Positions 48,361-63,125 of a stretch of DNA of 64,000 bases are shown here, piece after piece; within the stretch, counting starts at the first letter, position 1; every line of letters begins with the position of its first letter. Source of the stretch: Firmicutes bacterium UBA6811. GTDB lineage: Bacteria > Bacillota > SHA-98 > UBA4971. The notes below the pieces were generated by a model. That model saw nothing but the letters and a program-made list of their open reading frames with translations, did no database searches and was not told the origin of the DNA. The stretch spans positions 16,349 to 80,348 of the forward strand of contig DKEX01000096.1 of the NCBI GenBank assembly GCA_002452295.1. The letters run 5' to 3'. Made by a program: the position numbers and the translations under genes.

Positions 48361-48852
48361 GTGGATGCCTTGGAGAAGGTCCTGCTAGTGGAGCACGAGA
48401 AGTGTACAGCGTGCCGCATCTGTGAGCTCGTGTGCTCGGCGAAACATGCGGGGGCGTTCAACCCCGCGAAGGCGCGGATCACCGTGGCGACGTTTCTCGA
48501 GGACAACTTCTTCTTCCCGCTCACATGCCAGCATTGTGAGGAGCCTCTCTGTCAGGATGTGTGTCCCACCGGTGCCATATCGAGACACCCTGAGACCGCG
48601 GCCGTCATCATCGACGATGCGAAGTGCATCGGGTGCAGAATGTGCCAGGCCGCATGCCCCTTCGGTGCCGTCTCCTACTCCCCGTCGGAAGACAAGGTGG
48701 TGAAGTGCGATCTGTGCGGCGGCGAGCCTGAGTGCGTGCTGTTCTGCCCGTGGGATGCGATCAAGTATACTAAGGCCGACGACGCTGCGTTGCGCAGGCG
48801 CAAAGCTGTGGGCGAGAAGCTCAAGAAGGCCCTGCAGGAGGTGAAGGTGTGA
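48361..48852 (+). CDS. Polyferredoxin with four [4Fe-4S] cluster motifs, AOR electron-transfer subunit (AorA-like)
   Basis: It has four CxxCxxCxxxCP-type motifs ([52 protein letters not shown]). It is immediately upstream of the AOR gene. The start codon is uncertain. Confidence 0.8.
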
Positions 48853-50657
48853 TGTACGGCTGGGTAGGAAAGACGCTTCGGGTCAACCTCAACGACAGGT
48901 CCGCAGCCGTCGAGGATCTGTGCCCTGAACTCGCCGAGAAGTACCTTGGAGCGAGGGGCCTGGGCACCAAGATCCTCTATGACGAGCTTGTGCCCGGTGT
49001 AGACCCCCTCGGCCCGGACAACAAGATCATCTTCGCCACCGGGCCTCTCACCGGAACAGCCGCCACGTCGGCCGGTCGGTACAACGTTATCACGAAATCG
49101 CCGCTCACGGGGTTTATCGCCGCATCCAACTCCGGTGGGTATTTCCCCGCGGAGATGAAGTACGCCGGGTTTGACGCCATCATCGTGGAGGGCGCTGCAG
49201 ACGAGCCGGTGTACATCTGGGTCCATGACGGCAAGGCCGAGATTCGGGCCGCAAAACACGTCTGGGGCAAGAACACCGCCCAGACCACCGATATCCTGAT
49301 CGGGGAGACTCACCCCGACGCGAAAGTCGCATGCATCGGCCCCGCCGGTGAGAGACTCGTGCTCTTTTCGTGCGTGGTGAACGAGAAGGGCCGCGCCGCC
49401 GGACGATCAGGGGTCGGCGCCGTCATGGGCTCCAAGAACCTGAAGGCCATCGTGGTGAGGGGCACAGGCGACGTGAAGGTGGCAGACCAGGCGAAGTTCA
49501 GGGAGGCGGTGCTGGCGGCCCTCAAGAAGATCAAGGAGGCGCCTGTTACCTCGCAGGGCCTCCCAACGTACGGGACAGCCGTTCTTGTGAACGTCATCAA
49601 CCAGCACGGAGCGTTCCCGACGCGCAACTTCCAGACAGGCGTGTTCGAGGGCGCCGAGAAGATATCCGGCGAGGCCCTTGCCGCCAAGTTTCTCGTGAGA
49701 AAGCGCGCGTGTTTCGGGTGCCCCATCGCCTGCGGGCGGCCGAGCGCCGTGAGGAGCGGCAAGTACCAGGGCGCGGGCGAAGGCCCCGAGTACGAGACCA
49801 TCTGGGCGCTGGGCGCGACCTGTGCCGTCGATGACCTCGAGGCCATAACCAAGGCCAACTACCTGTGTAACGAGCTTGGCCTCGACCCCATAACCATGGG
49901 CTCTACCATAGCGTGCGCCATGGAGCTATATGAGAAGGGGTATCTCCCGGAGAGCGCAACTGATATCCCGCTCAGGTTCGGCGACGCCGACGCCATGGTC
50001 GAGGCGACGCGCAAGACCGCCTACCGGGAGGGCATCGGTGACCTGCTCGCGAAGGGTTCGTACCGGCTCGCCGCGGAGTTCGGCCATCCCGAGCTATCCA
50101 TGAGCGCAAAGAAACAGGAGTACCCGGCGTACGATCCGCGTGGCGCGAAGGGCATCGGGCTCAACTATGCCACTTCTAACAGGGGCGGCTGCCACGTTAG
50201 GGGCTACACGATCTCGCCGGAGATCCTCGGTGTCCCGGAGAAGATAGACCCACTCTCCAAGGACGGGAAAGCCGCCTGGGTCAAGGCATTTCAGGACGTA
50301 ACCTCCCTTGTGGACTCGGTCGGCATGTGCCTGTTCACCACCTTCGCACTGGGCGCGCCCGACGTGGCGAGTATGCTCGAGCCTGCGACGGGGATCGGGT
50401 TCCCCACTGAGAAGGCGCTACTCGCGGGCGAGCGCATCTGGAACCTCGAGCGCCTCTTCAACCTGAGAGAGGGGCTCACGAAAGACGACGATACTCTGGC
50501 TCCGAGGCTGCTCACCGAGCCAATGCCGGAGGGGCCCGCCGCCGGGCAGGTGGTGGAGCTTGCCGACATGCTGGCGGACTATTACCGAGCCAGGGGCTGG
50601 ACTGACGATGGCAAGCCTTCGACGGAGACCCTGGACCGGCTCGAGCTCGCTGGCTGA
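48852..50657 (+). CDS. Tungsten-containing aldehyde:ferredoxin oxidoreductase (AOR family)
   Basis: It begins [14 protein letters not shown] (AOR N-terminal domain). It has pterin/W-binding blocks and Cys ligands for the [4Fe-4S]. It is 602 aa. Confidence 0.9.
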
Positions 50658-50713
50658 CACCCGCACGTCGGGTGCTGAGGGGCTGGCGCGAAGGGAGGGG
50701 GCGCCTTCTGCGG

Positions 50714-50986
50714 GTGCGGTTCTTCTTCTTCGTGAAAGAGGCGGCGGGTGAGGACGAGGTCTTCATCCCCGCGGAGGCGGCCCCCGACCTCGAGGCGCTC
50801 ATCCAGGTGTTGGTGGGGCGGTTTGGCGAGAGGTTTGCTCGCGAGGTGCTCACGAGCGACGGCGAGGTCCGGCGCGATGTCAACATCCTCGTGAACGGTC
50901 GTAACGTCCAGTTTCTGGCCGGGCCTGACACCAGGCTGAAGGACGAGGACACCGTGAGCTTTCTCTCGGCGGTCGCCGGCGGGTGA
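50714..50986 (+). CDS. MoaD/ThiS-family small sulfur-carrier-like protein ending in Gly-Gly (AorD-like)
   Basis: It is a ~90-aa beta-grasp-like sequence with a C-terminal ...AVAGG stop. The GTG start at 50714 follows a GGGAGGGGG RBS. Confidence 0.5.
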   Translation: MRFFFFVKEAAGEDEVFIPAEAAPDLEALIQVLVGRFGERFAREVLTSDGEVRRDVNILVNGRNVQFLAGPDTRLKDEDTVSFLSAVAGG

Positions 50987-51167
50987 CCAGGCGGCCGCCC
51001 GGTCCGGACCTGCCCGGACCGGGCCGGAGCCGATGTCCCGTCAGGTGGCGGAGCTGTGTCCCGGGGGCTGCGCGGCACCGGCGCAGTCGTAGCTGCAGGC
51101 AAAGGCATTGCCCGTGTACAAGCGCTGATGTCTGCGTTCGGATGGGCATACGTTGGGGGGAAGTCCT

Positions 51168-52427
51168 ATGAAGTACGTGATCCTTGGAAACGGCCCGGCG
51201 GGCGTGAGCGCCCTCGTAGCCATCCGGGAGCTGGACCCGGCCGGGGAGATCACGGTGGTGTCGCCGGAGACCTGGCGCTACTACTCAAAGATCCTCCTGA
51301 CCCGCTGGATCGCGGGAAAGGTGCGGTTCCCCAATCTCTTCCTGGCCGGCGAGGGCTTCTATGACCGCAACGGCGTGAAGACCCTGTTCGGGGTGGCCGC
51401 GACCCGCATCGACCCGGAGAGGCCGGTGGTCGAGCTCTCTAACAGGCAGCGACTGGATTACGACAGACTGCTCCTGGCGATGGGAAGCTCTCCTCAGGTG
51501 CCTGACATCCGCGGCATAAGGCTTCCCGGCGTCCACTATCTGAGGACGTTCGACGATGCGGAACGGATCGCCCTGGCCGCACCGTCGGCCCGACGGGCTG
51601 TGGTGATAGGGGGCGGCCTCGTCAGCCTCAAGACCGCGGAGGGGCTCCTCGCGCGGGGCCTCGAGGTATGGGTGGTCGTGTCGTCCGATAGGCTGCTATC
51701 GCAGATCACCGCGCCGGAGGATTCCGAGGCGGTGCTCCGGATCTTCCAGGGGCCGCCCGGGCTTCACATCGTCCTGGGGTGCGATGTCAGCGAGCTCGAG
51801 GGCAGGGGGCGGGTCGAGGAGGCTCACCTCAGCACGGGTGAGAGGGTCGAGTGCGACATCGTCGTGGTCGGCAAGGGCGTCACGCCGAACATCCTCGTCA
51901 CGCGCGGCACCGGGATCGCCACGGCGCGCGGGGTCATCGTCGACGGCAGGATGCAGACCAGCGTTCCCGGGATATACGCAGCCGGCGACATTGCCGAGTG
52001 TTACGACATCGCCCGCGGGAAGGCCGCCCTCAACGCGCTCTGGTCGAGCGCCGTGTGGCAGGGCAGGGTGGCGGGTTACAACATGGCGGGGCGGGATGTG
52101 TCATACGCCGGTGACGTGGCCCTGAACTCCGTCACGTTCGGCGGCGGGTGCGTTGTGGCCCTGGGGCGGCCCCGCCCCGAGGCAGGCGACGAGGTGCACA
52201 CGTTGGCCGGCAAGGGCGGCGGCGAATACGCGCGGCTCGTGTTCCGCGACGGCCGGCTTGTGGGGGCCGTGCTCACCGGACGCGCGGTGGAGACGGCCGG
52301 GGTGCTTCGCAGCCTCATCGTGCGGCAGGCCGACGCGACTCCGATCATGGACAGGCTGCTGGGCGGCAGGACGTCATACCCCAGGATTCTGAATCTGAAG
52401 CTGTCGGTGTCAGGGATTGCTTCCTGA
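51168..52427 (+). CDS. FAD-dependent NAD(P)H oxidoreductase (pyridine nucleotide-disulfide family, ferredoxin/rubredoxin reductase-like; AorC-like)
   Basis: The FAD site is YVILGNGPAGVSA and the NAD site is AVVIGGGLVSLKTAEGL, with IYAAGDIAE. Confidence 0.75.
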   Translation: MKYVILGNGPAGVSALVAIRELDPAGEITVVSPETWRYYSKILLTRWIAGKVRFPNLFLAGEGFYDRNGVKTLFGVAATRIDPERPVVELSNRQRLDYDRLLLAMGSSPQVPDIRGIRLPGVHYLRTFDDAERIALAAPSARRAVVIGGGLVSLKTAEGLLARGLEVWVVVSSDRLLSQITAPEDSEAVLRIFQGPPGLHIVLGCDVSELEGRGRVEEAHLSTGERVECDIVVVGKGVTPNILVTRGTGIATARGVIVDGRMQTSVPGIYAAGDIAECYDIARGKAALNALWSSAVWQGRVAGYNMAGRDVSYAGDVALNSVTFGGGCVVALGRPRPEAGDEVHTLAGKGGGEYARLVFRDGRLVGAVLTGRAVETAGVLRSLIVRQADATPIMDRLLGGRTSYPRILNLKLSVSGIAS

Positions 52428-53015: not shown

Positions 53016-53942
53016 TCACGTTATCTGGATTTCCACGCTCAGCCTGACGCCCGTCCCGGTGTTGACCGCTGTGACGGTGTATACACCCGGCCGGACCGGC
53101 ACCCCTTCGTTCGTCGTCTGGTTCCAGGTCTGAAGGAAGATCATGTTCCCGCCGGGCGGCAGCGTGACCCGCTCTATCGCAAACGTGAAGAACTTCCCCG
53201 CCGACCAGCGCCATATCTCCCTCGTGTCGCGGGTGACGATGAAATCAAACCTCTGGCTGGACCGGTACGTGATCGTCACAGGGCTTGTGGTGACGTTGGT
53301 CTTCGTCAGGCTCATGCGCACAGGCTCGCCCCGGGCATAGCTGACCTTGTTCACCATGAACGTGTGCCGCAGGCCGTCTTGCACCACAGAGACCTGGTTC
53401 ACCCCGGTCACGGGTGCCGGTGGCGTCGGTGGAGGCCCAGGGGGTACTGGAGGCCCGGGTGGCACGGGCGGCGTCGGCACCGGCGGCGCTGGCGGAGGCG
53501 GCGGAGACGGCACGGGAGGCGGCGTGACTGGCGGTCCGGGCGGCACCACGGGTGGTGGAGGCGGCGGCAACGGCGTCGGGATCACGATGGTCGGCCTTAT
53601 CGGCACGAGCAGCACCTGTCCGACGACGATGAAGTCCGGGTTCGGAATGCGGTTTATGGCCGCAAGCACTTCCACGGTGGTCCCGAACCTCGCGGCTATC
53701 TCCGCGAGCGTGTCGCCTGGCTGGACGATGTATAGACGAAAACCAACCGGCACCGCGATGGGCGGGGGGGGCGACGGGGTCACCGGCGGCGCCGCCGGCA
53801 CGGGAATCTGGAGCACCTGTCCGACGAAGATCACGTCGGGATTCGCGATGTTGTTAGCCTCAACAATCGCCTCGACCGTGGTGCCGAACCTCTCCGCAAT
53901 GAGAGCAAGGGTGTCGCCAGGCTGGACTATATACGTGATCAT
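53016..53942 (-). CDS. Cell-wall-binding protein: two LysM domains, a Pro-rich linker, and a C-terminal BsuPI (intracellular proteinase inhibitor) domain
   Basis: The LysM repeats are YIVQPGDTLALIAERFGTTVEAIVEANNI and YIVQPGDTLAEIAARFGTTVEVLAAIN. The C-terminus has ...SSQRFDFIV...IWRWSAGKFF...PPGG...W...PGVYTV. The RBS is GGGAGGGA. Confidence 0.65.
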   Translation of the reverse strand: MITYIVQPGDTLALIAERFGTTVEAIVEANNIANPDVIFVGQVLQIPVPAAPPVTPSPPPPIAVPVGFRLYIVQPGDTLAEIAARFGTTVEVLAAINRIPNPDFIVVGQVLLVPIRPTIVIPTPLPPPPPPVVPPGPPVTPPPVPSPPPPPAPPVPTPPVPPGPPVPPGPPPTPPAPVTGVNQVSVVQDGLRHTFMVNKVSYARGEPVRMSLTKTNVTTSPVTITYRSSQRFDFIVTRDTREIWRWSAGKFFTFAIERVTLPPGGNMIFLQTWNQTTNEGVPVRPGVYTVTAVNTGTGVRLSVEIQIT

Positions 53943-54419
53943 GGCAATTCCCTCCCGGCGTCGTATGCCCTGAACCGGGATCACCCGGTGCGAGGGCCGA
54001 CAATTCCTCACAACATGTTATTCTATGTGCAGCACGGTGTTGCCTGTTGCCCGGCCATAGAGCGGGGAACCGACCTGATGTCCCCTTAAAGGAATACACG
54101 CAAGAGAGTCGAACAAAGAGCGTAGAGGAACCTGACATCACCCGGGCGCAACACGCATAGACCAGAGTATGGTCGGTTTGCCTGCGGGCCGGATGTCGTC
54201 GAGGGGCTCCGCCGGGACCGTGCCGGGGTCGTATCGCCGAACCTGCCCCAGGGGCCGAGGGAAGGCAGGGTTGCGCCCCCGGGGCACCTGATACGTGCGC
54301 CTGGCGCAAGACCCATTGGGAGCGTGCGACCCCTTGCAGGTGCGAACCCGTAGTCCAGTGCCAGCTACCCCTGGAGATGCGTCAGCGATCCCTGGGGTTG
54401 TGCTCAAAGGAGGCAGCGC

Positions 54420-55391
54420 GTGCCCCTGTTCGAGAGATTGCGAGAGCTCCCGGGACCCGTGCGCGCCGCCGCCGTGCTTCTCATGGGGGCGGGGGCGGTG
54501 TGTCTCGCGCTCTCGGCTGTTGCCGGAGAGCTCAAGGGGGAAGTCTGTCTCCATAGGGGCGCCCGCCTCGTGCAAACGGGGGGCGGTCCCTGGGGCCGAA
54601 CGCCGGCGACCGTGGATGCACTAGGAGCGCGGCCGGCCGCACTTGCGTCGGCGCCACCACCGGCACCCGCGACGCTGCGGGGGCTCGAGCAAGGATCTCT
54701 TCCGTCAGTATCAGCACCGGCACCAGCGCCAGCGCCGGCACCAGCACAGGCCGCTGTTCCGGCAACTGTCTCCGGCGATGTCCTGGATCGTATCCGTGCG
54801 GCCAGGACCCCAGTTCTTGAGCAAGAGGTTCTCGAGATCGCACGCGCCTCGGTAGCCGCTGCGGTTGCCGGTGACGGCGCAGAGGGGCGGCACCGGGCAG
54901 CGGTCTTCCCGGTGCGGACGCCGGGCGGCCTTCCTCGGGACGATGGCAGCGGCAGGGCCGTCCTCACGGCACCCGCTGGAGTGTTCGTCGCGCTCATCCT
55001 CGATGGCAGGGTGAGCGGGTGCATGGGCACCGTCTATCCGATGGAGGCGTCGCTCGCCGAGGAGATCGCAAGCGCGGCGCGGATGGCGGCTACGTCGGAC
55101 CCGCGTCGCCTGCCCGTGCGACCGGAGGAAGTGGCTCGGCTCGAGTACTGCGTGTCGGTGGTCGGCAGGGTGAGGCGGCACGACCCCGCGGTGCCGGTGA
55201 ACCCGCGAATCCAGGGCGTCATTGTAAGGGCGAACGGGAGGGCTGGCGTGATCCTGCCCGGCGAGGCCAGGACGGGCGCATACGAGATGGCCTGGGCGAA
55301 GCGCGAGGCCGGCGTGGGTCCAGGTGAGCACTATGAGCTATACGTCTTCGAGACGGAGCGATTCGGGAAGGCCCTGCCTTTGAGAAGGTAG
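54420..55391 (+). CDS. AMMECR1-domain protein with an N-terminal signal/TM segment and an Ala/Pro-rich linker
   Basis: There is an N-terminal hydrophobic segment AAVLLMGAGAVCLALSAV, a PAPAPAPA linker, and a C-terminal AMMECR1 core with GVFVALILDGRVSGCMG. Confidence 0.7.
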   Translation: MPLFERLRELPGPVRAAAVLLMGAGAVCLALSAVAGELKGEVCLHRGARLVQTGGGPWGRTPATVDALGARPAALASAPPPAPATLRGLEQGSLPSVSAPAPAPAPAPAQAAVPATVSGDVLDRIRAARTPVLEQEVLEIARASVAAAVAGDGAEGRHRAAVFPVRTPGGLPRDDGSGRAVLTAPAGVFVALILDGRVSGCMGTVYPMEASLAEEIASAARMAATSDPRRLPVRPEEVARLEYCVSVVGRVRRHDPAVPVNPRIQGVIVRANGRAGVILPGEARTGAYEMAWAKREAGVGPGEHYELYVFETERFGKALPLRR

Positions 55392-55410
55392 GCGAAGGAG
55401 GTAGGCGGCT

Positions 55411-58400
55411 GTGAAACCTCGTATCGCGCGATCGATACCTTACGCGGTTGCGGCGCTCGCGGCGGCTGCGGCGCTCGCGTTTCTCGCAAGGCCGCTTTCT
55501 GCAGATAGCGCCGATAAGGGTTACCTTTACATGTATACGGAGGAGAGGGTATGGGCGCCTTCCGAGCACCCGTCCGTGATAGTCCGAGGTCGGAGCGCGA
55601 CGCGGATTGACTTCACAGTGTGGAGGTTCAACCCCATCACGCAATACCAGGCGCGTGGGTCGCTGCACTCGGCCGCGGAGGCCCTACCTCAGGGCGGGGC
55701 GGTGCTGGTGAAGAGGCTCACGGAGTATCCGCGCCCGAACAAGCGGGGTGGGGACTACACTTTGAGGGTGCCCGTGCCTGCCGACAGGGTCGCGGGCTAC
55801 GTCGTGAAGGCGCGCGACAGCCACGGCCGCGAGGACACCACGTGGATCCTCGTGACCGACCTCGGCCTCGTGACGAAGCAGGCGCAGGATAAGCTCCTCG
55901 TGTACGCCCACACCTTTGGCAAGGACGCGCCGTGCGCGGGCGCGAAGGTCGCCGTGTACAGCGAGGGCAAGGAGGTCGGAAGCGGAACCACAGGGGGCGA
56001 TGGCCTGTGGGTGCTGAACGCCCCGGGCCTTGCAAAGGGCCTTTCGGTGGTCGGGACGGCAGGCGAGAGCTTCGCCCAGGTGACCTCGTCCTACTACTGG
56101 GAGGACTCCCGCTACAAGGCGTACATCTACACCGACAGGCCCGTATACCGGCCGGGCCAGCGGGTGTTCTTCAAGGGCATCCTCCGCGACGAGGACGGCG
56201 GAGACTACAAGGTGCTCGCGGGCGAGCCCGTCCGCGTGGAGGTGCGTGACGCGCGCGACGCGTGCATCTACAAGACCGAGGCCACGACGAACAGCTTCGG
56301 CTCATTCACCGGCGATCTCGTGCTCGGGGACGAGCCGGCGCTCGGCGTTTGCCGGGTGCTCGCCACGGTGAGGGGGAGCACGCACTCGGGCGCGTTCAAG
56401 GTGGCGGAGTACCGCAAGCCCGAGTACCAGGTGCAGGTGGAAGTGCCGAAGACCACGTACGTGGCGGGCGACGAGGTCCCGGTGAGCGTGAAGGCCGCCT
56501 ACTACTTCGGCGCGCCAGTCCCAGGTGCAAAGGTCAAATACGCCGCGTACTCCCAGCCGCACTACTTCTCGTACTACTCCTTCGAGGACCTTGGTTACTA
56601 TCCGGTCGGCGACGAGGACTTCGGGTACTACGGCGAGCTTGTGGCGTCCGGCGAAGGCGTGACGGACTCAAGTGGGCGCATGTCGTTCGCCATCAAGACG
56701 CAAAAGGCGGACACGACGAGGAAGATGTTCATCGAAGCGGTCGTGACCGACGAGAGCAGGCGCGAGGTCACGGGCAGAACCTCGGTGATCGTGGCGCGGG
56801 GGCTGTTCGACGTGAGCGTGCAGCCGGCGGCCTACGTGGTGGAGCCGGGCAAGCCTGCCACCGTGCGGGTGAAGGCCGAGACCATAGAGGGCAAGCCGCT
56901 TGCCGTGCGGCTCGAGTGGCAGGCCGTGCGCCGGACATGGGAGAACAAGAAGGCCAGGCGGTGGAAGGAGGCGTCGGGCGCGCTGCGCACGGCGGCCGAC
57001 GGGACGGGGAGCTTTGAGTTCACGCCGCGCGAGGAAGGGTCCTACGTGGTGGAGGTCGCCGGGACCGACGAACGCGGCAACCGGATCGTCTCCGAAGCGT
57101 ATCTCTGGGTCACGAGCGGAGCGAGCCGCTGGGCGAGTTACGGCGGCACCGAGATAGAGATCGTGGCCGACAAGGACGTGTACGAGATCGGGGACACGGC
57201 GAAGATCCTCGTGAACACCACGCTCGACGACGCGTGGGCGGTGGTGACGGTCGAGGGGCGCGACCTTGCCTCGCACGGGGTGGTCCACATCATGGGCCAC
57301 ACGAGGCTGTTCGAGGTCCCCATCACCCGGGAGCACCTTCCGAACGCGTTCTTCACCGTGACGATAGTCCGCGGGAAGAGGCTCTTCTCCAGGGAGAAGA
57401 CCATCTATGTGTCGACGAAGGACAACTACCTGAACGTGGCGATCATTCCGAACAAGGAGACCTACGGTCCCGGCGACAAGGCTACCTATGTGGTGAAGAC
57501 GACGGATGCGGCGGGCCGCCCGGTGCAGTCCGAGGTGTCGCTGGGGGTCGTGGACGCATCCATATACGCGATCCAGCCGGAGATGGCGCCCGACATAAAG
57601 AAGGCGTTCTACGGGTCCATCTGGAACAGGGTGGTCACGAGCTATTCGTTCCCGGAGTGGTATTACGGAGGTGCCGACAAAGTCGGCGGGTCGGCGGACG
57701 TGAGGAGGAAGTTCGAGGACACGGCCTTCTGGAATCCCACCATCGTGACGGACCGAAACGGCACCGGGAAGATCGAGTTCGTCATGCCGGATAACCTCAC
57801 GACGTGGCGGGCGACCGCGAGGGCCCACACCCTCAAGACCCAGGTGGGGTCGGCGACTCGAGACGTGGTGACGACCAAGGACCTCGTCGTGAGGCTTGCG
57901 ACGCCGCGCTTGTTCACGCTGGGCGACCGGACGGCGGTCTCGACGATCGTCCACAACTACACCGGGCGCAAGATTAAGGCGAAGATCACTCTCAAGGCCG
58001 AGGGTGTCACGCTGAAAGATGCGGGCGAGCGCGAGGTGGAGCTTGGCCCCATGGGCCAGGCCTCGCTCGACTGGAAGGTTGAGTGCGGCGAGGTCGGAGT
58101 CGCACGCTTTGCGGCGTCGGCCCAGGCTGACGTCGGACGGGCGCGGGACGCGCTTGAAATGGGCGTGCCGGTGCTGCCCTTCGGTAGGCGGCACGAGCGA
58201 CACGAGGCTGGCGAGGTGGGCGGCGATGCCGCTAGCGGCGCAGGGGCCGGGAAGGCGCTCGTCAGGTTCGATGTGCCAGAGGACGCGCTGCCTGGCACGG
58301 TCGACGTGAAGGTGCGGCTCGCGCCATCGGTTGCGGCCGCGGCCCTGGGGGCTCTCGAATACCTGGCGTCGTTCCCGTACGGGTGTGTGGAGCAGACCAT

Positions 58401-60531
58401 GAACTCCTTCCTGCCCGACGTGGTGGTGGCCTGGACGCTAAAGGATCTCGGGGTGGAGGCGCCGCCTGAAGTCGAGCAGGACCTGCCGAGGATGGTCTCG
58501 GCGGGCCTCGCGAGGCTCTACCGCTACCAGCACTACGACGGAGGATGGGGCTGGTGGGAGTACGACCAGACGGACCCGAGGATGACCGCTTACGTGGTAT
58601 ACGGCCTCGACCTTGCGCGGAAGGCGGGGTTCGAGGTGGACGGCCAGGTGCTCGCGCGAGGGAAGAGAGCGCTTGTCGAGCTTGCTGGTAGGCCGCGCGA
58701 CGTGGACGACCTCGTATACAAGCTCTACGTCATGTCCGAGGTGGGCGAGAGGAGCCTTGCGAGGCTCGACGAGATGGTGGCGAGGCGGCTCGAGCTTTCC
58801 GAATACTCGCTTGCGCTCCTCGTGCTTACTCTCGACAACGTGGGCCGGGCCGATGATGCCAGGGAGGTGCTCCAGGATCTCCTGGCGTCGGCGCGGGGCG
58901 ACGACATGCTCACCTACTGGGACGCGCCGGAGGGCGAGCGGTACTGGGCGGACAACCGCGTGGAGACCACGGCGTACGCGCTCATGGCGATGCTTGCGGT
59001 GGACCCCGGGAACGAGAAGGTCCCGGGAGCGGTGAGGTGGCTTGCGGACGCGCGGCAGGGCAAGGCATGGTTCTCAACCAAGGACACCGCCGTGGCCGTG
59101 TTCGCGCTGGCGGAGTACCTGAAGCTACGCGACGAGGTCGCGCCGAACTACACCGCTACCGTCAGCATCAACGGAAAAGATGTCAAGAAGGTGCATTTCA
59201 CCAGAAAGGACGTCTTCGGGAAGGAGATCGAGGTCAGCATAGACGCGCGCGACCTTGCGCGCGGGCAGAATGAGATCACCATCGCGAAGGACGGCGGGAA
59301 GGGCAGGCTGTACTACACGTTCTCTTGTGAGTACTACACGGCTGCGGACTCCGTGGCGCCCGAAGGGCAGGGCCTCGCGGTGACCCGGGGCTACTACCGG
59401 AGGGCCCCGGCGCCGGCCGCTGCCGGGCGCGAGAGGCGCGAGGACGGAAAGACGCGCGGCGGTGAGGAGAAGCCGGAGTACGTGTACGAACCCGTGACCG
59501 GCGCTGTGAAGCCGGGCGAGGAGATATACGTTCGCATAAACATCAAGGCCGATAGCCCGTATACCTATATGATCATCGAAGATCCGCTCCCGTCGGGCTT
59601 CGAGACTTCGGATGAGCCGATCGACGTCTATAGCTGGCACTTCTCGTACGGCAGGAAGGAGGTCCGCGACGAGAAGGTGGCCTTCTTCAGCGGCTACCTG
59701 AAGGAGGGCGAAGACGAGATCGTGTACCCCATACGAGCTGAGCGGCCCGGGGATTACCGGGTCATGCCGACGCGGGTGTGGGGCATGTACTCGCCTGACG
59801 TCTTCGGCCAGTCGGCAAGCTCGGAGATCTCCTGCAGGGAGCCGGTGCTTGCGAGCTTCTCCACGACGCTCAAGGACCCGGAGGAGAGCCGCAACTACAA
59901 CGTTGCGCTGGCTGCGGCCGCCATCGACGGAGTCGTGCTCCAGCCGGGCGAGGAGTTCTCCTTCGACCGGGTCGTAGGGCCGAGGCTCGCGGAGGCCGGC
60001 TACAGGAATGCGCGGGTGATCTCCGGAGGCAAGAGCGTGCCGGGGATCGGCGGAGGGGTATGCCAGGTGTCGACGACCCTCTACAACGTGGCTCTCCTCG
60101 CCGGGCTCGAGATCGTCGAGCGCCACCCGCACTCAAGGCCGGTTGGGTACGTCCCGCCCGGGCTTGATGCTACGGTGGCCGAAGGCCAGTACGATCTCAG
60201 GTTCCGGAACACGCTTGGGGTGCCGCTGACGCTGGGCGCCCGCGTGGACGGGAACAGGTTGCTGATGGAGGCGCGGGCGCCTCTCGCGGAGGCCCCGGAG
60301 GTGCGCGTGACCACTGAGGTCCAGGGGACCGAGAGGCCGAGGCTCATCGGCGGGGTCGGTGCGGGCACCACGGGCGCTGTGGCCGAGCCGGGGGGGCCTG
60401 CCTACGGAGGCGAGAGCGGCATCCGCGTTGCAGTGTGGAGGAGTTTTTCCTCAGGCGGCGAAGCCACAAAGGAGCTGGTATCCGAGGATTATTACAAGCC
60501 GGTGCACGCGGTGGCCTCGTCGGTGCGGTAG
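55411..60531 (+). CDS. Secreted alpha-2-macroglobulin family protein with intact thioester (GCVEQ), fused to a C-terminal VanW domain
   Basis: It has a signal peptide and multiple MG domains. The thioester FPYGCVEQTMNSF is at about aa 990. The C-terminal VanW block is GGKSVPGIGGGVCQVSTTLYNVALLAG. It is 1706 aa. Confidence 0.8.
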   Translation: MKPRIARSIPYAVAALAAAAALAFLARPLSADSADKGYLYMYTEERVWAPSEHPSVIVRGRSATRIDFTVWRFNPITQYQARGSLHSAAEALPQGGAVLVKRLTEYPRPNKRGGDYTLRVPVPADRVAGYVVKARDSHGREDTTWILVTDLGLVTKQAQDKLLVYAHTFGKDAPCAGAKVAVYSEGKEVGSGTTGGDGLWVLNAPGLAKGLSVVGTAGESFAQVTSSYYWEDSRYKAYIYTDRPVYRPGQRVFFKGILRDEDGGDYKVLAGEPVRVEVRDARDACIYKTEATTNSFGSFTGDLVLGDEPALGVCRVLATVRGSTHSGAFKVAEYRKPEYQVQVEVPKTTYVAGDEVPVSVKAAYYFGAPVPGAKVKYAAYSQPHYFSYYSFEDLGYYPVGDEDFGYYGELVASGEGVTDSSGRMSFAIKTQKADTTRKMFIEAVVTDESRREVTGRTSVIVARGLFDVSVQPAAYVVEPGKPATVRVKAETIEGKPLAVRLEWQAVRRTWENKKARRWKEASGALRTAADGTGSFEFTPREEGSYVVEVAGTDERGNRIVSEAYLWVTSGASRWASYGGTEIEIVADKDVYEIGDTAKILVNTTLDDAWAVVTVEGRDLASHGVVHIMGHTRLFEVPITREHLPNAFFTVTIVRGKRLFSREKTIYVSTKDNYLNVAIIPNKETYGPGDKATYVVKTTDAAGRPVQSEVSLGVVDASIYAIQPEMAPDIKKAFYGSIWNRVVTSYSFPEWYYGGADKVGGSADVRRKFEDTAFWNPTIVTDRNGTGKIEFVMPDNLTTWRATARAHTLKTQVGSATRDVVTTKDLVVRLATPRLFTLGDRTAVSTIVHNYTGRKIKAKITLKAEGVTLKDAGEREVELGPMGQASLDWKVECGEVGVARFAASAQADVGRARDALEMGVPVLPFGRRHERHEAGEVGGDAASGAGAGKALVRFDVPEDALPGTVDVKVRLAPSVAAAALGALEYLASFPYGCVEQTMNSFLPDVVVAWTLKDLGVEAPPEVEQDLPRMVSAGLARLYRYQHYDGGWGWWEYDQTDPRMTAYVVYGLDLARKAGFEVDGQVLARGKRALVELAGRPRDVDDLVYKLYVMSEVGERSLARLDEMVARRLELSEYSLALLVLTLDNVGRADDAREVLQDLLASARGDDMLTYWDAPEGERYWADNRVETTAYALMAMLAVDPGNEKVPGAVRWLADARQGKAWFSTKDTAVAVFALAEYLKLRDEVAPNYTATVSINGKDVKKVHFTRKDVFGKEIEVSIDARDLARGQNEITIAKDGGKGRLYYTFSCEYYTAADSVAPEGQGLAVTRGYYRRAPAPAAAGRERREDGKTRGGEEKPEYVYEPVTGAVKPGEEIYVRINIKADSPYTYMIIEDPLPSGFETSDEPIDVYSWHFSYGRKEVRDEKVAFFSGYLKEGEDEIVYPIRAERPGDYRVMPTRVWGMYSPDVFGQSASSEISCREPVLASFSTTLKDPEESRNYNVALAAAAIDGVVLQPGEEFSFDRVVGPRLAEAGYRNARVISGGKSVPGIGGGVCQVSTTLYNVALLAGLEIVERHPHSRPVGYVPPGLDATVAEGQYDLRFRNTLGVPLTLGARVDGNRLLMEARAPLAEAPEVRVTTEVQGTERPRLIGGVGAGTTGAVAEPGGPAYGGESGIRVAVWRSFSSGGEATKELVSEDYYKPVHAVASSVR

Positions 60532-62543: not shown

Positions 62544-63125
62544 ATGACAACATCCGCTGCGATTTCACACCCACTGCCTGAGAAGGCCGAGATCGACCGC
62601 GAGATACGCAGGCTTGCGTGGCCCGCCATCGCCGAGATGTTGCTCCACATGTTCGTGTGGGCTGTGGACACCGCCATGGTGGGCCGCCTCGGCGCCAGGG
62701 GGGCCGACCGGGCGGTGCAGGTGGGCTACAGGTCGCTGCGCTACTCGGTGGCGGTCATGGGAAGCGTTGCCCTGGCGTTCCTCCTGGTCGCGGGCTTGAT
62801 TATCAGGATGTTCACGAACGATGCGGAGGTCATCCGGATCGGGTCGGTGTGCCTGCGGATAGCCGCCTTCGAGCAGGTGTTCATCGGCATAACCGACACC
62901 CTGTGCGGCTGGCTCCGCGGCGCCGGGGACACCCGCACCGCGCTTCGCATAACCGCCGCGGGCACCTAGCTCGTCCGCATGCCCGTCGTCGTGCTCGCCA
63001 TCTACGTCCTTCACCTCGGGCTTCCGGCCGTCTGGGTCATAACCTGCCTCGACTGGGCCGTCCGCTCCGTCCTTGCAGCGAGACACTTCCGCCCCGGCAG
63101 GTGGCAGGAGGTGAAAGTTCATCGA
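62544..63125 (+). pseudogene. MATE transporter remnant (paralog of 60660-62066) with an internal deletion and an in-frame stop
   Basis: The N-terminal ~55 aa (LAWPAIAEMLLHMFVWAVDTAMVGRLGA) join directly to a C-terminal-half-like sequence (FTNDAEVIRIGSVCLRIAAFEQVFIGI...WLRGAGDTRTAL). An in-frame TAG at 62967-62969 interrupts it, after which the reading frame continues as ...VWVITCLDWAVRSVLAARHFRPGRWQE. Confidence 0.55.

Follow-up and report, generated by a model that had tools for sequence, protein, structure and literature searches.

The locus under study lies in a window, here the whole 64-kb stretch of DNA analysed, and is formed by two closely spaced genes on the forward strand, the first specifying an AMMECR1-family protein of 323 aa that is predicted to be exported and membrane-tethered (54420..55391, +; GTG start, stop codon included), and the second a secreted thioester alpha-2-macroglobulin (A2M) of 1706 aa with a C-terminal VanW (LD-transpeptidase-type) fusion (55411..60531, +; Pfam). 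The genes neighbouring AMMECR1 in the window encode a LysM-BsuPI protein, this A2M::VanW protein and MatE. The LysM-BsuPI gene is divergently oriented (53016..54011, −), and its product was found by Pfam to comprise two LysM domains (E=2.3e-35), a Pro-rich linker and a BsuPI proteinase-inhibitor domain (E=2.9e-25); it also adjoins AMMECR1 in Bacillota relatives (at 13 loci by tblastn, and as neighbour family c3 at 11 loci) and may represent an associated component of the module described below. Ribosome-binding sites were read from the sequence for both forward genes, AAAGGAGG at 54406..54413 (+), 6 nt 5′ of the GTG of AMMECR1, and GAAGGAGG at 55394..55401 (+) for A2M::VanW. The AMMECR1 gene had been assigned an end at 55411 and a gap of 20 nt to its neighbour by the first-pass annotation; the open reading frame in fact ends at 55391, position 55411 is where its neighbour begins, and the two are separated on the same strand (+) by 19 nt. 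A gap of this size leaves no room for a terminator, a terminator scan between the two genes yielded no terminator-like site, and the two genes are probably co-transcribed. A promoter/terminator scan, and an Rfam scan of the 400-nt region upstream of AMMECR1, returned nothing above background.

The hydrophobic signal or transmembrane segment proposed for the AMMECR1 protein was confirmed at residues 16-36 (54465..54527, +), where it may act as a signal-anchor or a signal peptide; it is preceded by Arg-rich residues 1-15, reaches a Kyte-Doolittle 19-mer mean of 2.27, falls within a helix (residues 12-42) of the AlphaFold model, and a hydrophobic N-terminus followed by a variable linker is found in 28/28 close homologues. 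That the true start lies upstream of this segment is indicated by conservation of the GTG and its ribosome-binding site in three relatives (L001, L002 and L005) and of the N-terminal peptide, which is kept at the amino-acid level among close homologues, while no ribosome-binding site precedes the in-frame starts further downstream (codons 51 and 65). The segment is followed by an Ala/Pro-rich linker (residues 43-118; 54546..54773, +), which includes PAPAPAPAPA, is disordered in the AlphaFold model (pLDDT <50), shows many gaps and no conservation in alignment A1, and differs between homologues in both length and sequence. With the helix ending at residue 42 and the domain beginning at 119, the linker is about 75 aa long and not about 100 aa as first estimated. 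The window protein's hydrophobic segment has balanced flanking charges, of about +1 at either end, and the topology assigned to the protein therefore draws on the pattern of the family and not just on its own sequence. Taken together, these features support the prediction that the window protein is a membrane-tethered, outward-facing version of a normally cytoplasmic protein.

The linker is followed by the AMMECR1 domain (residues 119-320; 54774..55379, +), modelled by AlphaFold as the two-lobed AMMECR1 fold with a pLDDT mostly >90, falling to 57-66 over residues ~150-180. The earlier assignment of an AMMECR1 core behind the linker thus stands, as the quoted core sequence GVFVALILDGRVSGCMG is present and Pfam model PF01871 matches residues 179-315 over profile positions 24-168 (E=1.7e-22; 80.2 bits against a cutoff of 25). 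AMMECR1 proteins are conserved from archaea to human, where mutation of the gene causes developmental disease, and crystal structures of the family include PH0010 (1VAJ), MM0484 (1ZQ7) and ST0229 (1WSC); we know of no biochemical activity assigned to any AMMECR1 protein. A motif RGChG, in which the Cys is absolutely conserved, and also a DxRa motif have been described for the family (PMC2034487). In the window protein these correspond to SGC(201)MG, with the Cys201 codon at 55020-55022, and to D227-x-R229, to which a subfamily motif, LPGE(282)A, is added. D227-P-R229 is invariant in the 28 close homologues, and the aromatic position of DxRa is occupied by Arg, His or Tyr in the exported AMMECR1 subfamily. 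Across 52 diverse exported members, C201, G203, G266, L279 and E282 are invariant columns, and as Cys201 is the sole invariant Cys a structural disulfide is unlikely. In the first motif the window protein retains the Cys and Gly of S199-G-C201-M-G and has Ser in place of the Arg that is kept in at least 90% of relatives, owing to which the window copy may be less active.

Exported AMMECR1 proteins were found to be far from rare, so that of the first-pass view of an exported copy of a cytoplasmic protein the export signal is upheld and the implied rarity is not: they constitute a large subfamily with an invariant Cys and an LPxE motif of its own. A signal peptide or anchor was present in all complete subfamily members examined, with clearly cleavable signal peptides of the classical type in distant homologues (such as MRKLILVAFCMSALAFAPALA followed by HSEP), and an N-terminal hydrophobic segment occurs in ~60/150 of the best cluster representatives, the top-ranked ones included. 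The LPxE motif is carried by 118/121 AMMECR1 proteins with a hydrophobic N-terminus, as compared to 1/43 in the class with a long N-terminal extension (LigB/Memo-AMMECR1 fusions), the single exception, P0009, being an exported-family member with an over-extended open reading frame. The metagenome scan was run with an 18-sequence subset (A3), the 52 sequences of alignment A2 being too varied to yield a search pattern. One fusion protein combines an exported AMMECR1 with an AhpC/TSA redoxin and a polysaccharide deacetylase, an arrangement which fits a thiol that needs to stay reduced and a wall-polysaccharide substrate. Three "AMMECR1" open reading frames of 560-618 aa (L032, L041 and L053) proved to be Arg/Gly/Pro-rich shadow frames over a real SpoIID gene, the real AMMECR1 proteins at these loci beginning at a signal peptide ~45 residues before the domain, and these were consequently not counted as SpoIID-AMMECR1 fusions.

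The adjacent, same-strand gene had been read as a secreted A2M-VanW protein, and this reading is corroborated by a signal peptide and by the Pfam domains MG2, bMG3, A2M_BRD, A2M, TED_complement, bMG10 and VanW. The domain set, together with the CxEQ motif, here GCVEQ at residues 991-995 (58381..58395, +), identifies it as a type I (thioester) bacterial alpha-2-macroglobulin, and GCxEQ is retained in all linked full-length A2Ms of related loci except L018. Its signal peptide, MKPRIARSIPYAVAALAAAAALAFLARPLSA followed by DS, is free of Cys and therefore has no lipobox. The VanW domain (residues 1494-1620; 59890..60270, +; PF04294, E=3e-49) contains a putative catalytic Cys1551 in GGGVCQVS (nt 60061-60063) and a His and Asp in HPHS...GLDAT, and these three residues are conserved in 19/19 aligned module VanW sequences; an apparent loss of the Cys from L016, L017 and L019, suggested by a regular-expression search, was rejected when alignment revealed GGGICxLSS with the Cys present. 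VanW domains act as LD-transpeptidases, for which a Cys is essential and a Cys-His-Asp triad has been proposed (PMC11348318), and Bollinger et al. observed activity in 3/7 of the non-C. difficile VanW proteins they assayed (PMC11348318). The Cys, His and Asp of the module VanW occupy the proposed triad positions of C. difficile Ldt4 and Ldt5 (PMC11348318). Unlike stand-alone VanW proteins, however, module VanW proteins are either short (223-270 aa, consisting of a signal peptide or lipobox plus VanW) or fused to A2M, and are devoid of PG_binding_4 and G5 domains. Judged from these residues, both the A2M and the VanW partner appear to be active.

The two genes had been proposed to form a unit whose conservation should be checked in related genomes. 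The AMMECR1/A2M pairing holds and was found to be kept well beyond close relatives, from Bacillota through Vampirovibrio, cyanobacteria, Armatimonadota and Myxococcota to Acidobacteriota; what is conserved, however, is a set of three, as VanW belongs to it too, in the window in the form of a fusion with A2M. This trio recurs in at least five bacterial phyla and is apparently undescribed, as our literature search retrieved no paper linking AMMECR1 to bacterial A2M and nothing relevant on SpoIID with macroglobulin or on macroglobulin with VanW. In a count limited to genome loci with enough downstream DNA, A2M lies directly downstream of AMMECR1 in 17/17, and the two adjoin wherever testable in Bacillota, Vampirovibrio, cyanobacterial and Armatimonadota contigs. 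VanW-AMMECR1-A2M operons were present in 6/6 distant members looked up, a Myxococcales and an Acidobacteriota contig among them, and the genes around these operons are unrelated; VanW overlaps AMMECR1 in 5/5 of the distant contigs with DNA available, and in 3/5 there is a 4-nt overlap at both junctions. Local HMM maps distinguished the gene orders AMME-A2M::VanW, membrane protein-PBPtp-SpoIID-AMME-A2M-VanW and VanW-AMME-A2M. We define the module by an exported LPxE-type AMMECR1 gene whose same-strand neighbours encode a thioester A2M and a VanW domain. The window contains such a module and, with 12 Bacillota genome loci, represents the fused A2M::VanW form; A2M and VanW are unfused in a Clostridia locus (L066), and diderm-type modules were found at L016-L019, L021, L023, L042, L046, L055/56 and L058-L063. 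Some clusters additionally contain a polytopic membrane protein along with SpoIID and a PBP-type transpeptidase, two genes that fit a role in the cell wall and are fused into one at L063. The polytopic membrane proteins gave no family match against Pfam and NCBIfam, and the two versions of the protein share one weak motif only (E=0.04). The linkage of AMMECR1 and A2M is not obligatory in either direction: exported AMMECR1 is found beside PBPtp-SpoIID with no A2M within the flanks (≤10 kb) at L032, L040, L041 and L053/54, and between trpB and coaX at L043, L045, L047, L049 and L052, and 2/3 short VanW genes looked up lie beside A2M and a polytopic membrane protein and are without an adjacent AMMECR1. 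Synechococcus PCC 7002, in which A2573 is an A2M, may offer a model host should this gene belong to such a cluster.

The explanation that we favour, and which we hold to be rather probable, is that the AMMECR1 protein serves as an extracytoplasmic, thiol-dependent partner in a wall module combining a protease trap with peptidoglycan cross-linking. The signal-anchor would hold the AMMECR1-fold protein on the outer face of the cytoplasmic membrane, from where the flexible Ala/Pro linker of ~75 residues would let the domain reach into the wall compartment, and the gene, presumably co-transcribed and probably translationally linked with A2M::VanW, would be part of the Bacillota version of a three-part envelope module of VanW, exported AMMECR1 and A2M. 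In this module A2M would trap proteases that reach the wall, and VanW, through its Cys-His-Asp triad, would form or mend 3-3 cross-links in the peptidoglycan or else anchor the trap to it. The exposed Cys201 of AMMECR1, together with D227, R229 and the subfamily-specific E282, would form a thiol-dependent enzyme or a substrate-handling partner, whose substrate may be a peptidoglycan stem peptide or the acyl intermediates of VanW or A2M. The export signal, the fold, the conservation of motifs, the intact state of the thioester and the VanW triad, and the linkage of the genes in several phyla are direct observations; co-transcription and physical interaction of the module proteins are inferred, and above all the proposed chemistry of the AMMECR1 domain is an extrapolation from motif conservation and gene context.

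A rather unlikely alternative is that the AMMECR1 domain is a non-catalytic tether or scaffold which binds A2M and/or VanW and keeps the non-lipidated A2M near the membrane, much as accessory Mag proteins stabilise MagD in Pseudomonas, its conserved Cys being a ligand-binding or redox-sensing residue and no nucleophile. Such a role would suit the plain A2M signal peptide without a lipobox Cys set against an AMMECR1 protein with a membrane anchor and long linker, the persistence of an intact AMMECR1 gene in the window despite the lost motif Arg (S199), and the gene overlaps, which suggest stoichiometric co-production. In diderm lineages, however, the signal peptide of AMMECR1 is cleavable and an anchor is absent, so tethering cannot be its general role, and the retention of Cys201, D227, R229 and E282 across >50 members of 25-40% identity has the look of an active site, just as the redoxin fusion suggests a reactive thiol. 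We regard it as improbable that AMMECR1 is a maturation or maintenance factor that forms, protects or re-forms the Cys-Gln thioester of A2M, or keeps the TED cysteine reduced: its gene does lie nearly always immediately upstream of, and often overlaps, that of A2M, and all linked full-length A2Ms but that of L018 have GCxEQ, but exported AMMECR1 also occurs with PBPtp-SpoIID (no A2M in flanks of ≤10 kb) or by itself, and in A2M/C3-family proteins the thioester arises during folding with no need of helper proteins, recombinant ECAM of E. coli being thioester-competent. An independent envelope function, with A2M adjacency reflecting shared regulation or inherited gene order and no joint mechanism, draws on the loci with no A2M nearby (L025, L037, L039, L043 and L049) and on the A2M-VanW pairs without adjacent AMMECR1; it is made very improbable by adjacency in at least five phyla among unrelated flanks, by the shuffled position of VanW and by the 4-nt double overlaps in 3/5 operons, and the scarcity of A2M genes in genomes leaves a negligible likelihood that they would adjoin AMMECR1 by accident at dozens of independent loci. 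That the protein is in truth cytoplasmic, through a mis-called start or a helix inserted with the C-terminal domain inside, and represents a membrane-anchored AmmeMemoRadiSam-type protein, is scarcely credible, for against the balanced charges and the identity of the best named model, NCBIfam AmmeMemoSam_A (system protein A, TIGR04335; profile positions 28-135 of 175), stand the score of that model, 68.8 bits against a cutoff of 99, a tblastn search of the 64-kb window with seven LigB/Memo N-domains that gave no significant match, the conserved start and ribosome-binding site, homologues with clear positive-inside N-termini or cleavable signal peptides, and partner proteins that are all secreted.

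The exported AMMECR1 subfamily lies beyond the cytoplasm, where SAM, ATP and RNA are out of reach, and is tightly linked to two proteins of thioester or thioacyl chemistry, A2M and VanW, and to peptidoglycan enzymes; this location and linkage reduce the range of plausible reactions to thiol catalysis that needs no cofactor and acts on peptides or on the wall. The exported subfamily also opens simple in vitro tests of AMMECR1 chemistry. A bolder proposal, which we consider rather unlikely, is that exported LPxE-type AMMECR1 proteins represent a new class of extracytoplasmic cysteine-dependent enzyme which would act on stem peptides, or would, together with VanW, transfer the activated A2M-protease adduct onto peptidoglycan, in a third type of bacterial A2M system. 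Were AMMECR1 to be such a cysteine-dependent enzyme, it would provide the first tractable biochemical handle on the AMMECR1 fold and bear on the human AMMECR1 disease gene.

The module appears to constitute a third genomic context for bacterial alpha-2-macroglobulins, besides yfhM-pbpC and the mag operon. In the yfhM (ECAM)-pbpC operon of E. coli a thioester A2M is encoded beside PBP1c, a peptidoglycan synthase, a pairing that points to wall repair working alongside defence against proteases. The window locus resembles it in the genetic coupling of a thioester A2M, with the same domain set, to a peptidoglycan cross-linking enzyme; the partner enzyme, however, is a VanW-type LD-transpeptidase fused to A2M and not PBP1c, the A2M is not a lipoprotein as YfhM is, adjacency to pbpC is absent, and the consistently linked exported AMMECR1 gene has no E. 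coli counterpart. The idea of a protease trap plus wall repair is thereby widened to LD-transpeptidases and to Bacillota. The magABCDEF operon of Pseudomonas aeruginosa is reported to encode the A2M homologue MagD and several envelope accessory proteins (PMC5764988), and the module is alike in that A2M is encoded together with envelope accessory proteins. The two differ in that MagD is without a thioester, whereas the window A2M has GCVEQ, and in their accessories: no homologues of the Mag accessory proteins were seen, those of the module being AMMECR1 and VanW, joined in some clusters by SpoIID, a PBP transpeptidase domain and the polytopic membrane protein.

The AMMECR1 gene (54420-55391, forward strand, GTG start, 323 aa) ends 19 nt before a gene for a 1706-aa A2M::VanW protein (55411-60531) with a plain signal peptide devoid of a lipobox cysteine, a complete bacterial A2M domain complement and VanW at its C-terminus, and no terminator-like site was found between the two genes in the window. 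The pairing, which the first-pass annotation had read as a possible envelope-associated operon, is kept in other genomes: a genome scan by family-specific peptide patterns established 20 loci, and A2M directly follows AMMECR1 in all 17 with enough downstream DNA. Arrangement maps, obtained with locally built HMMs over all reading frames of 58 loci and the window, placed AMMECR1 before an A2M::VanW fusion both in the window and in 12 genome loci of Bacillota (L001-L003 and L005-L013, of which L006, labelled Betaproteobacteria, is probably misbinned), while the order polytopic membrane protein, PBP-type transpeptidase domain, SpoIID, AMMECR1, A2M, VanW was observed in Vampirovibrio, cyanobacterial and Armatimonadota genomes and several metagenome contigs, and the order VanW-AMMECR1-A2M in other metagenome contigs. 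Six distant members were looked up, among them a Myxococcales MAG, a UBA4820 (Acidobacteriota) contig and a contig of 1.39 Mb; each belongs to a VanW-AMMECR1-A2M operon, and the genes around these operons are unrelated. The VanW and AMMECR1 genes overlap in each of the five contigs with DNA, and in three of these both junctions overlap by 4 nt (ATGA). A Clostridia MAG carries AMMECR1, A2M and VanW as three separate genes, which makes the A2M::VanW fusion of the window one form of a common module. The thioester motif (GCVEQ, residues 991-995 in the window) is found in nearly all full-length A2Ms linked to AMMECR1, and the VanW Cys, His and Asp, present in the window domain (E=3e-49; Cys1551), occur in 19 of 19 aligned sequences. 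A 2024 study (PMC11348318) established VanW domains as LD-transpeptidases whose conserved cysteine is essential, and both partners of the module look active as judged from their sequences. At least five phyla encode exported AMMECR1 together with a thioester A2M and a VanW domain.

Export was evaluated across the family. Among 5.8 billion proteins, the search recovered 28 close clusters, all of 215-340 aa and, where the source was named, from Bacillota/Firmicutes MAGs; the hydrophobic segment, linker and AMMECR1 core described in the first-pass annotation recur in every one, the segment being preceded by basic residues and the linker varying in length and sequence up to the well-conserved domain, which starts at GD(V/A)LDRLR. 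Distant relatives from Vampirovibrio, a Coleofasciculaceae cyanobacterium, Obscuribacterales, Armatimonadota and gut Firmicutes carry textbook cleavable signal peptides (for example LRRGWLVAFIFCLAAWPGAVWA, cleaved before ETV), and every complete homologue of the metagenome loci has an upstream signal or anchor. Export is a trait of this AMMECR1 group, and the window protein is targeted outside the cytoplasm, its topology resting on the family pattern because the charges on either side of its hydrophobic segment are balanced.

An AMMECR1 profile search of 1.84 billion cluster representatives (E≤0.001) yielded 7,777 proteins; about 60 of the best 150 are of 190-300 aa with an N-terminal hydrophobic signal, concentrated at the top ranks, and the lower ranks hold either 170-180-aa cytoplasmic forms or fusions of LigB/Memo to AMMECR1 (about 470 aa). 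Of 121 proteins with a hydrophobic N-terminus, 118 have an LPxE motif (E282 in the window protein), and among 43 with long N-terminal extensions (the LigB/Memo fusion class) it was found only in P0009, whose over-extended ORF belongs to the exported family; the archaeal structure 1ZQ7 has LLPQVA at the aligned stretch. C201, G203, G266, L279 and E282 are invariant across 52 diverse exported members, and no cysteine other than Cys201 is invariant, which favours a functional thiol over a structural disulfide. The window protein retains the AMMECR1 fold and the proposed catalytic Cys and Asp/Arg, and has gained a subfamily-specific Glu. Codon 199 of the window gene (55014-55016) is AGC, encoding Ser where at least 90% of relatives, including P0001 (88% identical), have the Arg of RGCxG; a single base change to CGC would give Arg back. 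Balaji and Aravind (PMC2034487) proposed the same Cys as catalytic in cytoplasmic AMMECR1, where it would modify RNA bases together with a radical-SAM partner; that context is absent for the window protein, as the 64-kb window holds no LigB/Memo homologue and the protein scores under the AmmeMemoSam_A cutoff. A non-catalytic tether would be consistent with the membrane anchor and the non-lipidated A2M; however, AMMECR1 forms in diderm lineages are soluble and periplasmic, and the conservation of AMMECR1 residues resembles an active site.

The linkage to A2M is strong but not obligatory, as AMMECR1 loci without A2M and A2M-VanW pairs without AMMECR1 were both encountered. AMMECR1 follows the PBP-type transpeptidase and SpoIID genes, with no A2M in the fetched flanks (up to 10 kb), in L032, L040, L041 and L053/54; in five metagenome contigs (L043, L045, L047, L049, L052) a membrane-anchored AMMECR1 with a long linker is flanked by trpB and a type III pantothenate kinase gene, with no A2M, VanW or SpoIID nearby, and a few AMMECR1 loci have no recognisable partner genes. 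Reverse look-up of three short VanW proteins placed one in the trio and two in A2M-VanW pairs lacking an adjacent AMMECR1; ahead of each of these pairs an uncharacterised polytopic membrane protein (470-520 aa) is encoded. Such proteins (about 470-520 aa; L064 1655-3226, L065 1904-3322, L023 5283-6755, L017 16177-17724) are repeatedly found beside A2M-VanW and matched no Pfam or NCBIfam family, and their two versions have one weak motif in common (E=0.04) and nothing else; in L064 and L065 the protein sits where AMMECR1 stands elsewhere. The tight adjacency of AMMECR1 and A2M would also suit an A2M maturation factor, yet AMMECR1 loci without A2M speak against this, and thioesters of A2M-family proteins are known to form without helper proteins. 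Coincidental adjacency is for practical purposes excluded by its conservation despite shuffled gene order and unrelated flanks, and a cytoplasmic AMMECR1 domain is contradicted by the conserved start and the family-wide signals.

The association of AMMECR1 with peptidoglycan enzymes is at least as close as that with A2M. The extra conserved cluster genes encode SpoIID/LytB (TIGR02669, E=4.7e-40) and a transpeptidase domain of PBP2-like type (about 300 aa), fused in a 661-aa gene directly after the VanW-AMMECR1-A2M operon of L063 (14319-16304) and separate genes in the other clusters. P0154 (594 aa), the sole multi-domain exported AMMECR1 seen among the representatives, combines a signal peptide, AMMECR1, an AhpC/TSA redoxin and a polysaccharide deacetylase; this single case fits a thiol that has to be kept reduced outside the cytoplasm and a wall-polysaccharide substrate. 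We consider it quite likely that AMMECR1 is exported and serves as a functional partner within an envelope module. The window protein would remain anchored in the membrane, as most Bacillota homologues have no convincing signal-peptidase site and AlphaFold models one continuous helix, and the Ala/Pro linker may let the domain reach the wall and act there with the secreted A2M::VanW protein. In this scheme the task of A2M would be to capture invading proteases and that of VanW to cross-link or repair peptidoglycan, or else to attach the A2M trap to it, and AMMECR1 might be a thiol-dependent enzyme or a substrate-handling partner on stem peptides or acyl intermediates, a catalytic role specifically on peptidoglycan or acyl intermediates being rather doubtful.

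The closest known systems are the cytoplasmic AMMECR1/AmmeMemoRadiSam family, the E. coli yfhM-pbpC operon, the Pseudomonas mag operon and the VanW LD-transpeptidases; the module joins known domains in a combination that we could not find described, and full-text searches for AMMECR1, SpoIID or VanW together with macroglobulin found nothing relevant. NCBIfam has no model specific to exported AMMECR1, and the source annotations of these proteins read solely "AMMECR1 domain-containing protein". We rate two things as new, an AMMECR1 clade that is exported and a third kind of genomic setting in which bacterial A2M occurs. We know of no activity for AMMECR1, and in the setting of this module, cofactor-free thiol chemistry that acts on wall or peptide substrates can be tested directly.

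Upstream of and divergent from AMMECR1, a gene on the reverse strand (53016-54011), its position kept in Bacillota relatives, encodes two LysM domains joined by a long Pro-rich linker to a BsuPI domain (intracellular proteinase inhibitor); these domains and the conserved position suggest that a second wall-binding protease inhibitor adjoins the A2M module. The protein has no signal peptide if Met24 is the start, and its LysM domains score slightly under the SafA/ExsA spore-coat model. Aldehyde:ferredoxin oxidoreductase and pyridine-nucleotide-disulfide oxidoreductase genes (48849-52427, forward strand), in the same order in most Bacillota relatives, lie further upstream and suggest an anaerobic lifestyle of the source organism. 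Downstream of A2M::VanW are a MatE transporter gene and a second MatE paralogue (62544-63122, forward strand) that looks like a remnant: against a 456-aa gene of L001 (17944-19314) it aligns, in a single frame, over residues 1-52 and 307-456, and it lacks about 255 codons.
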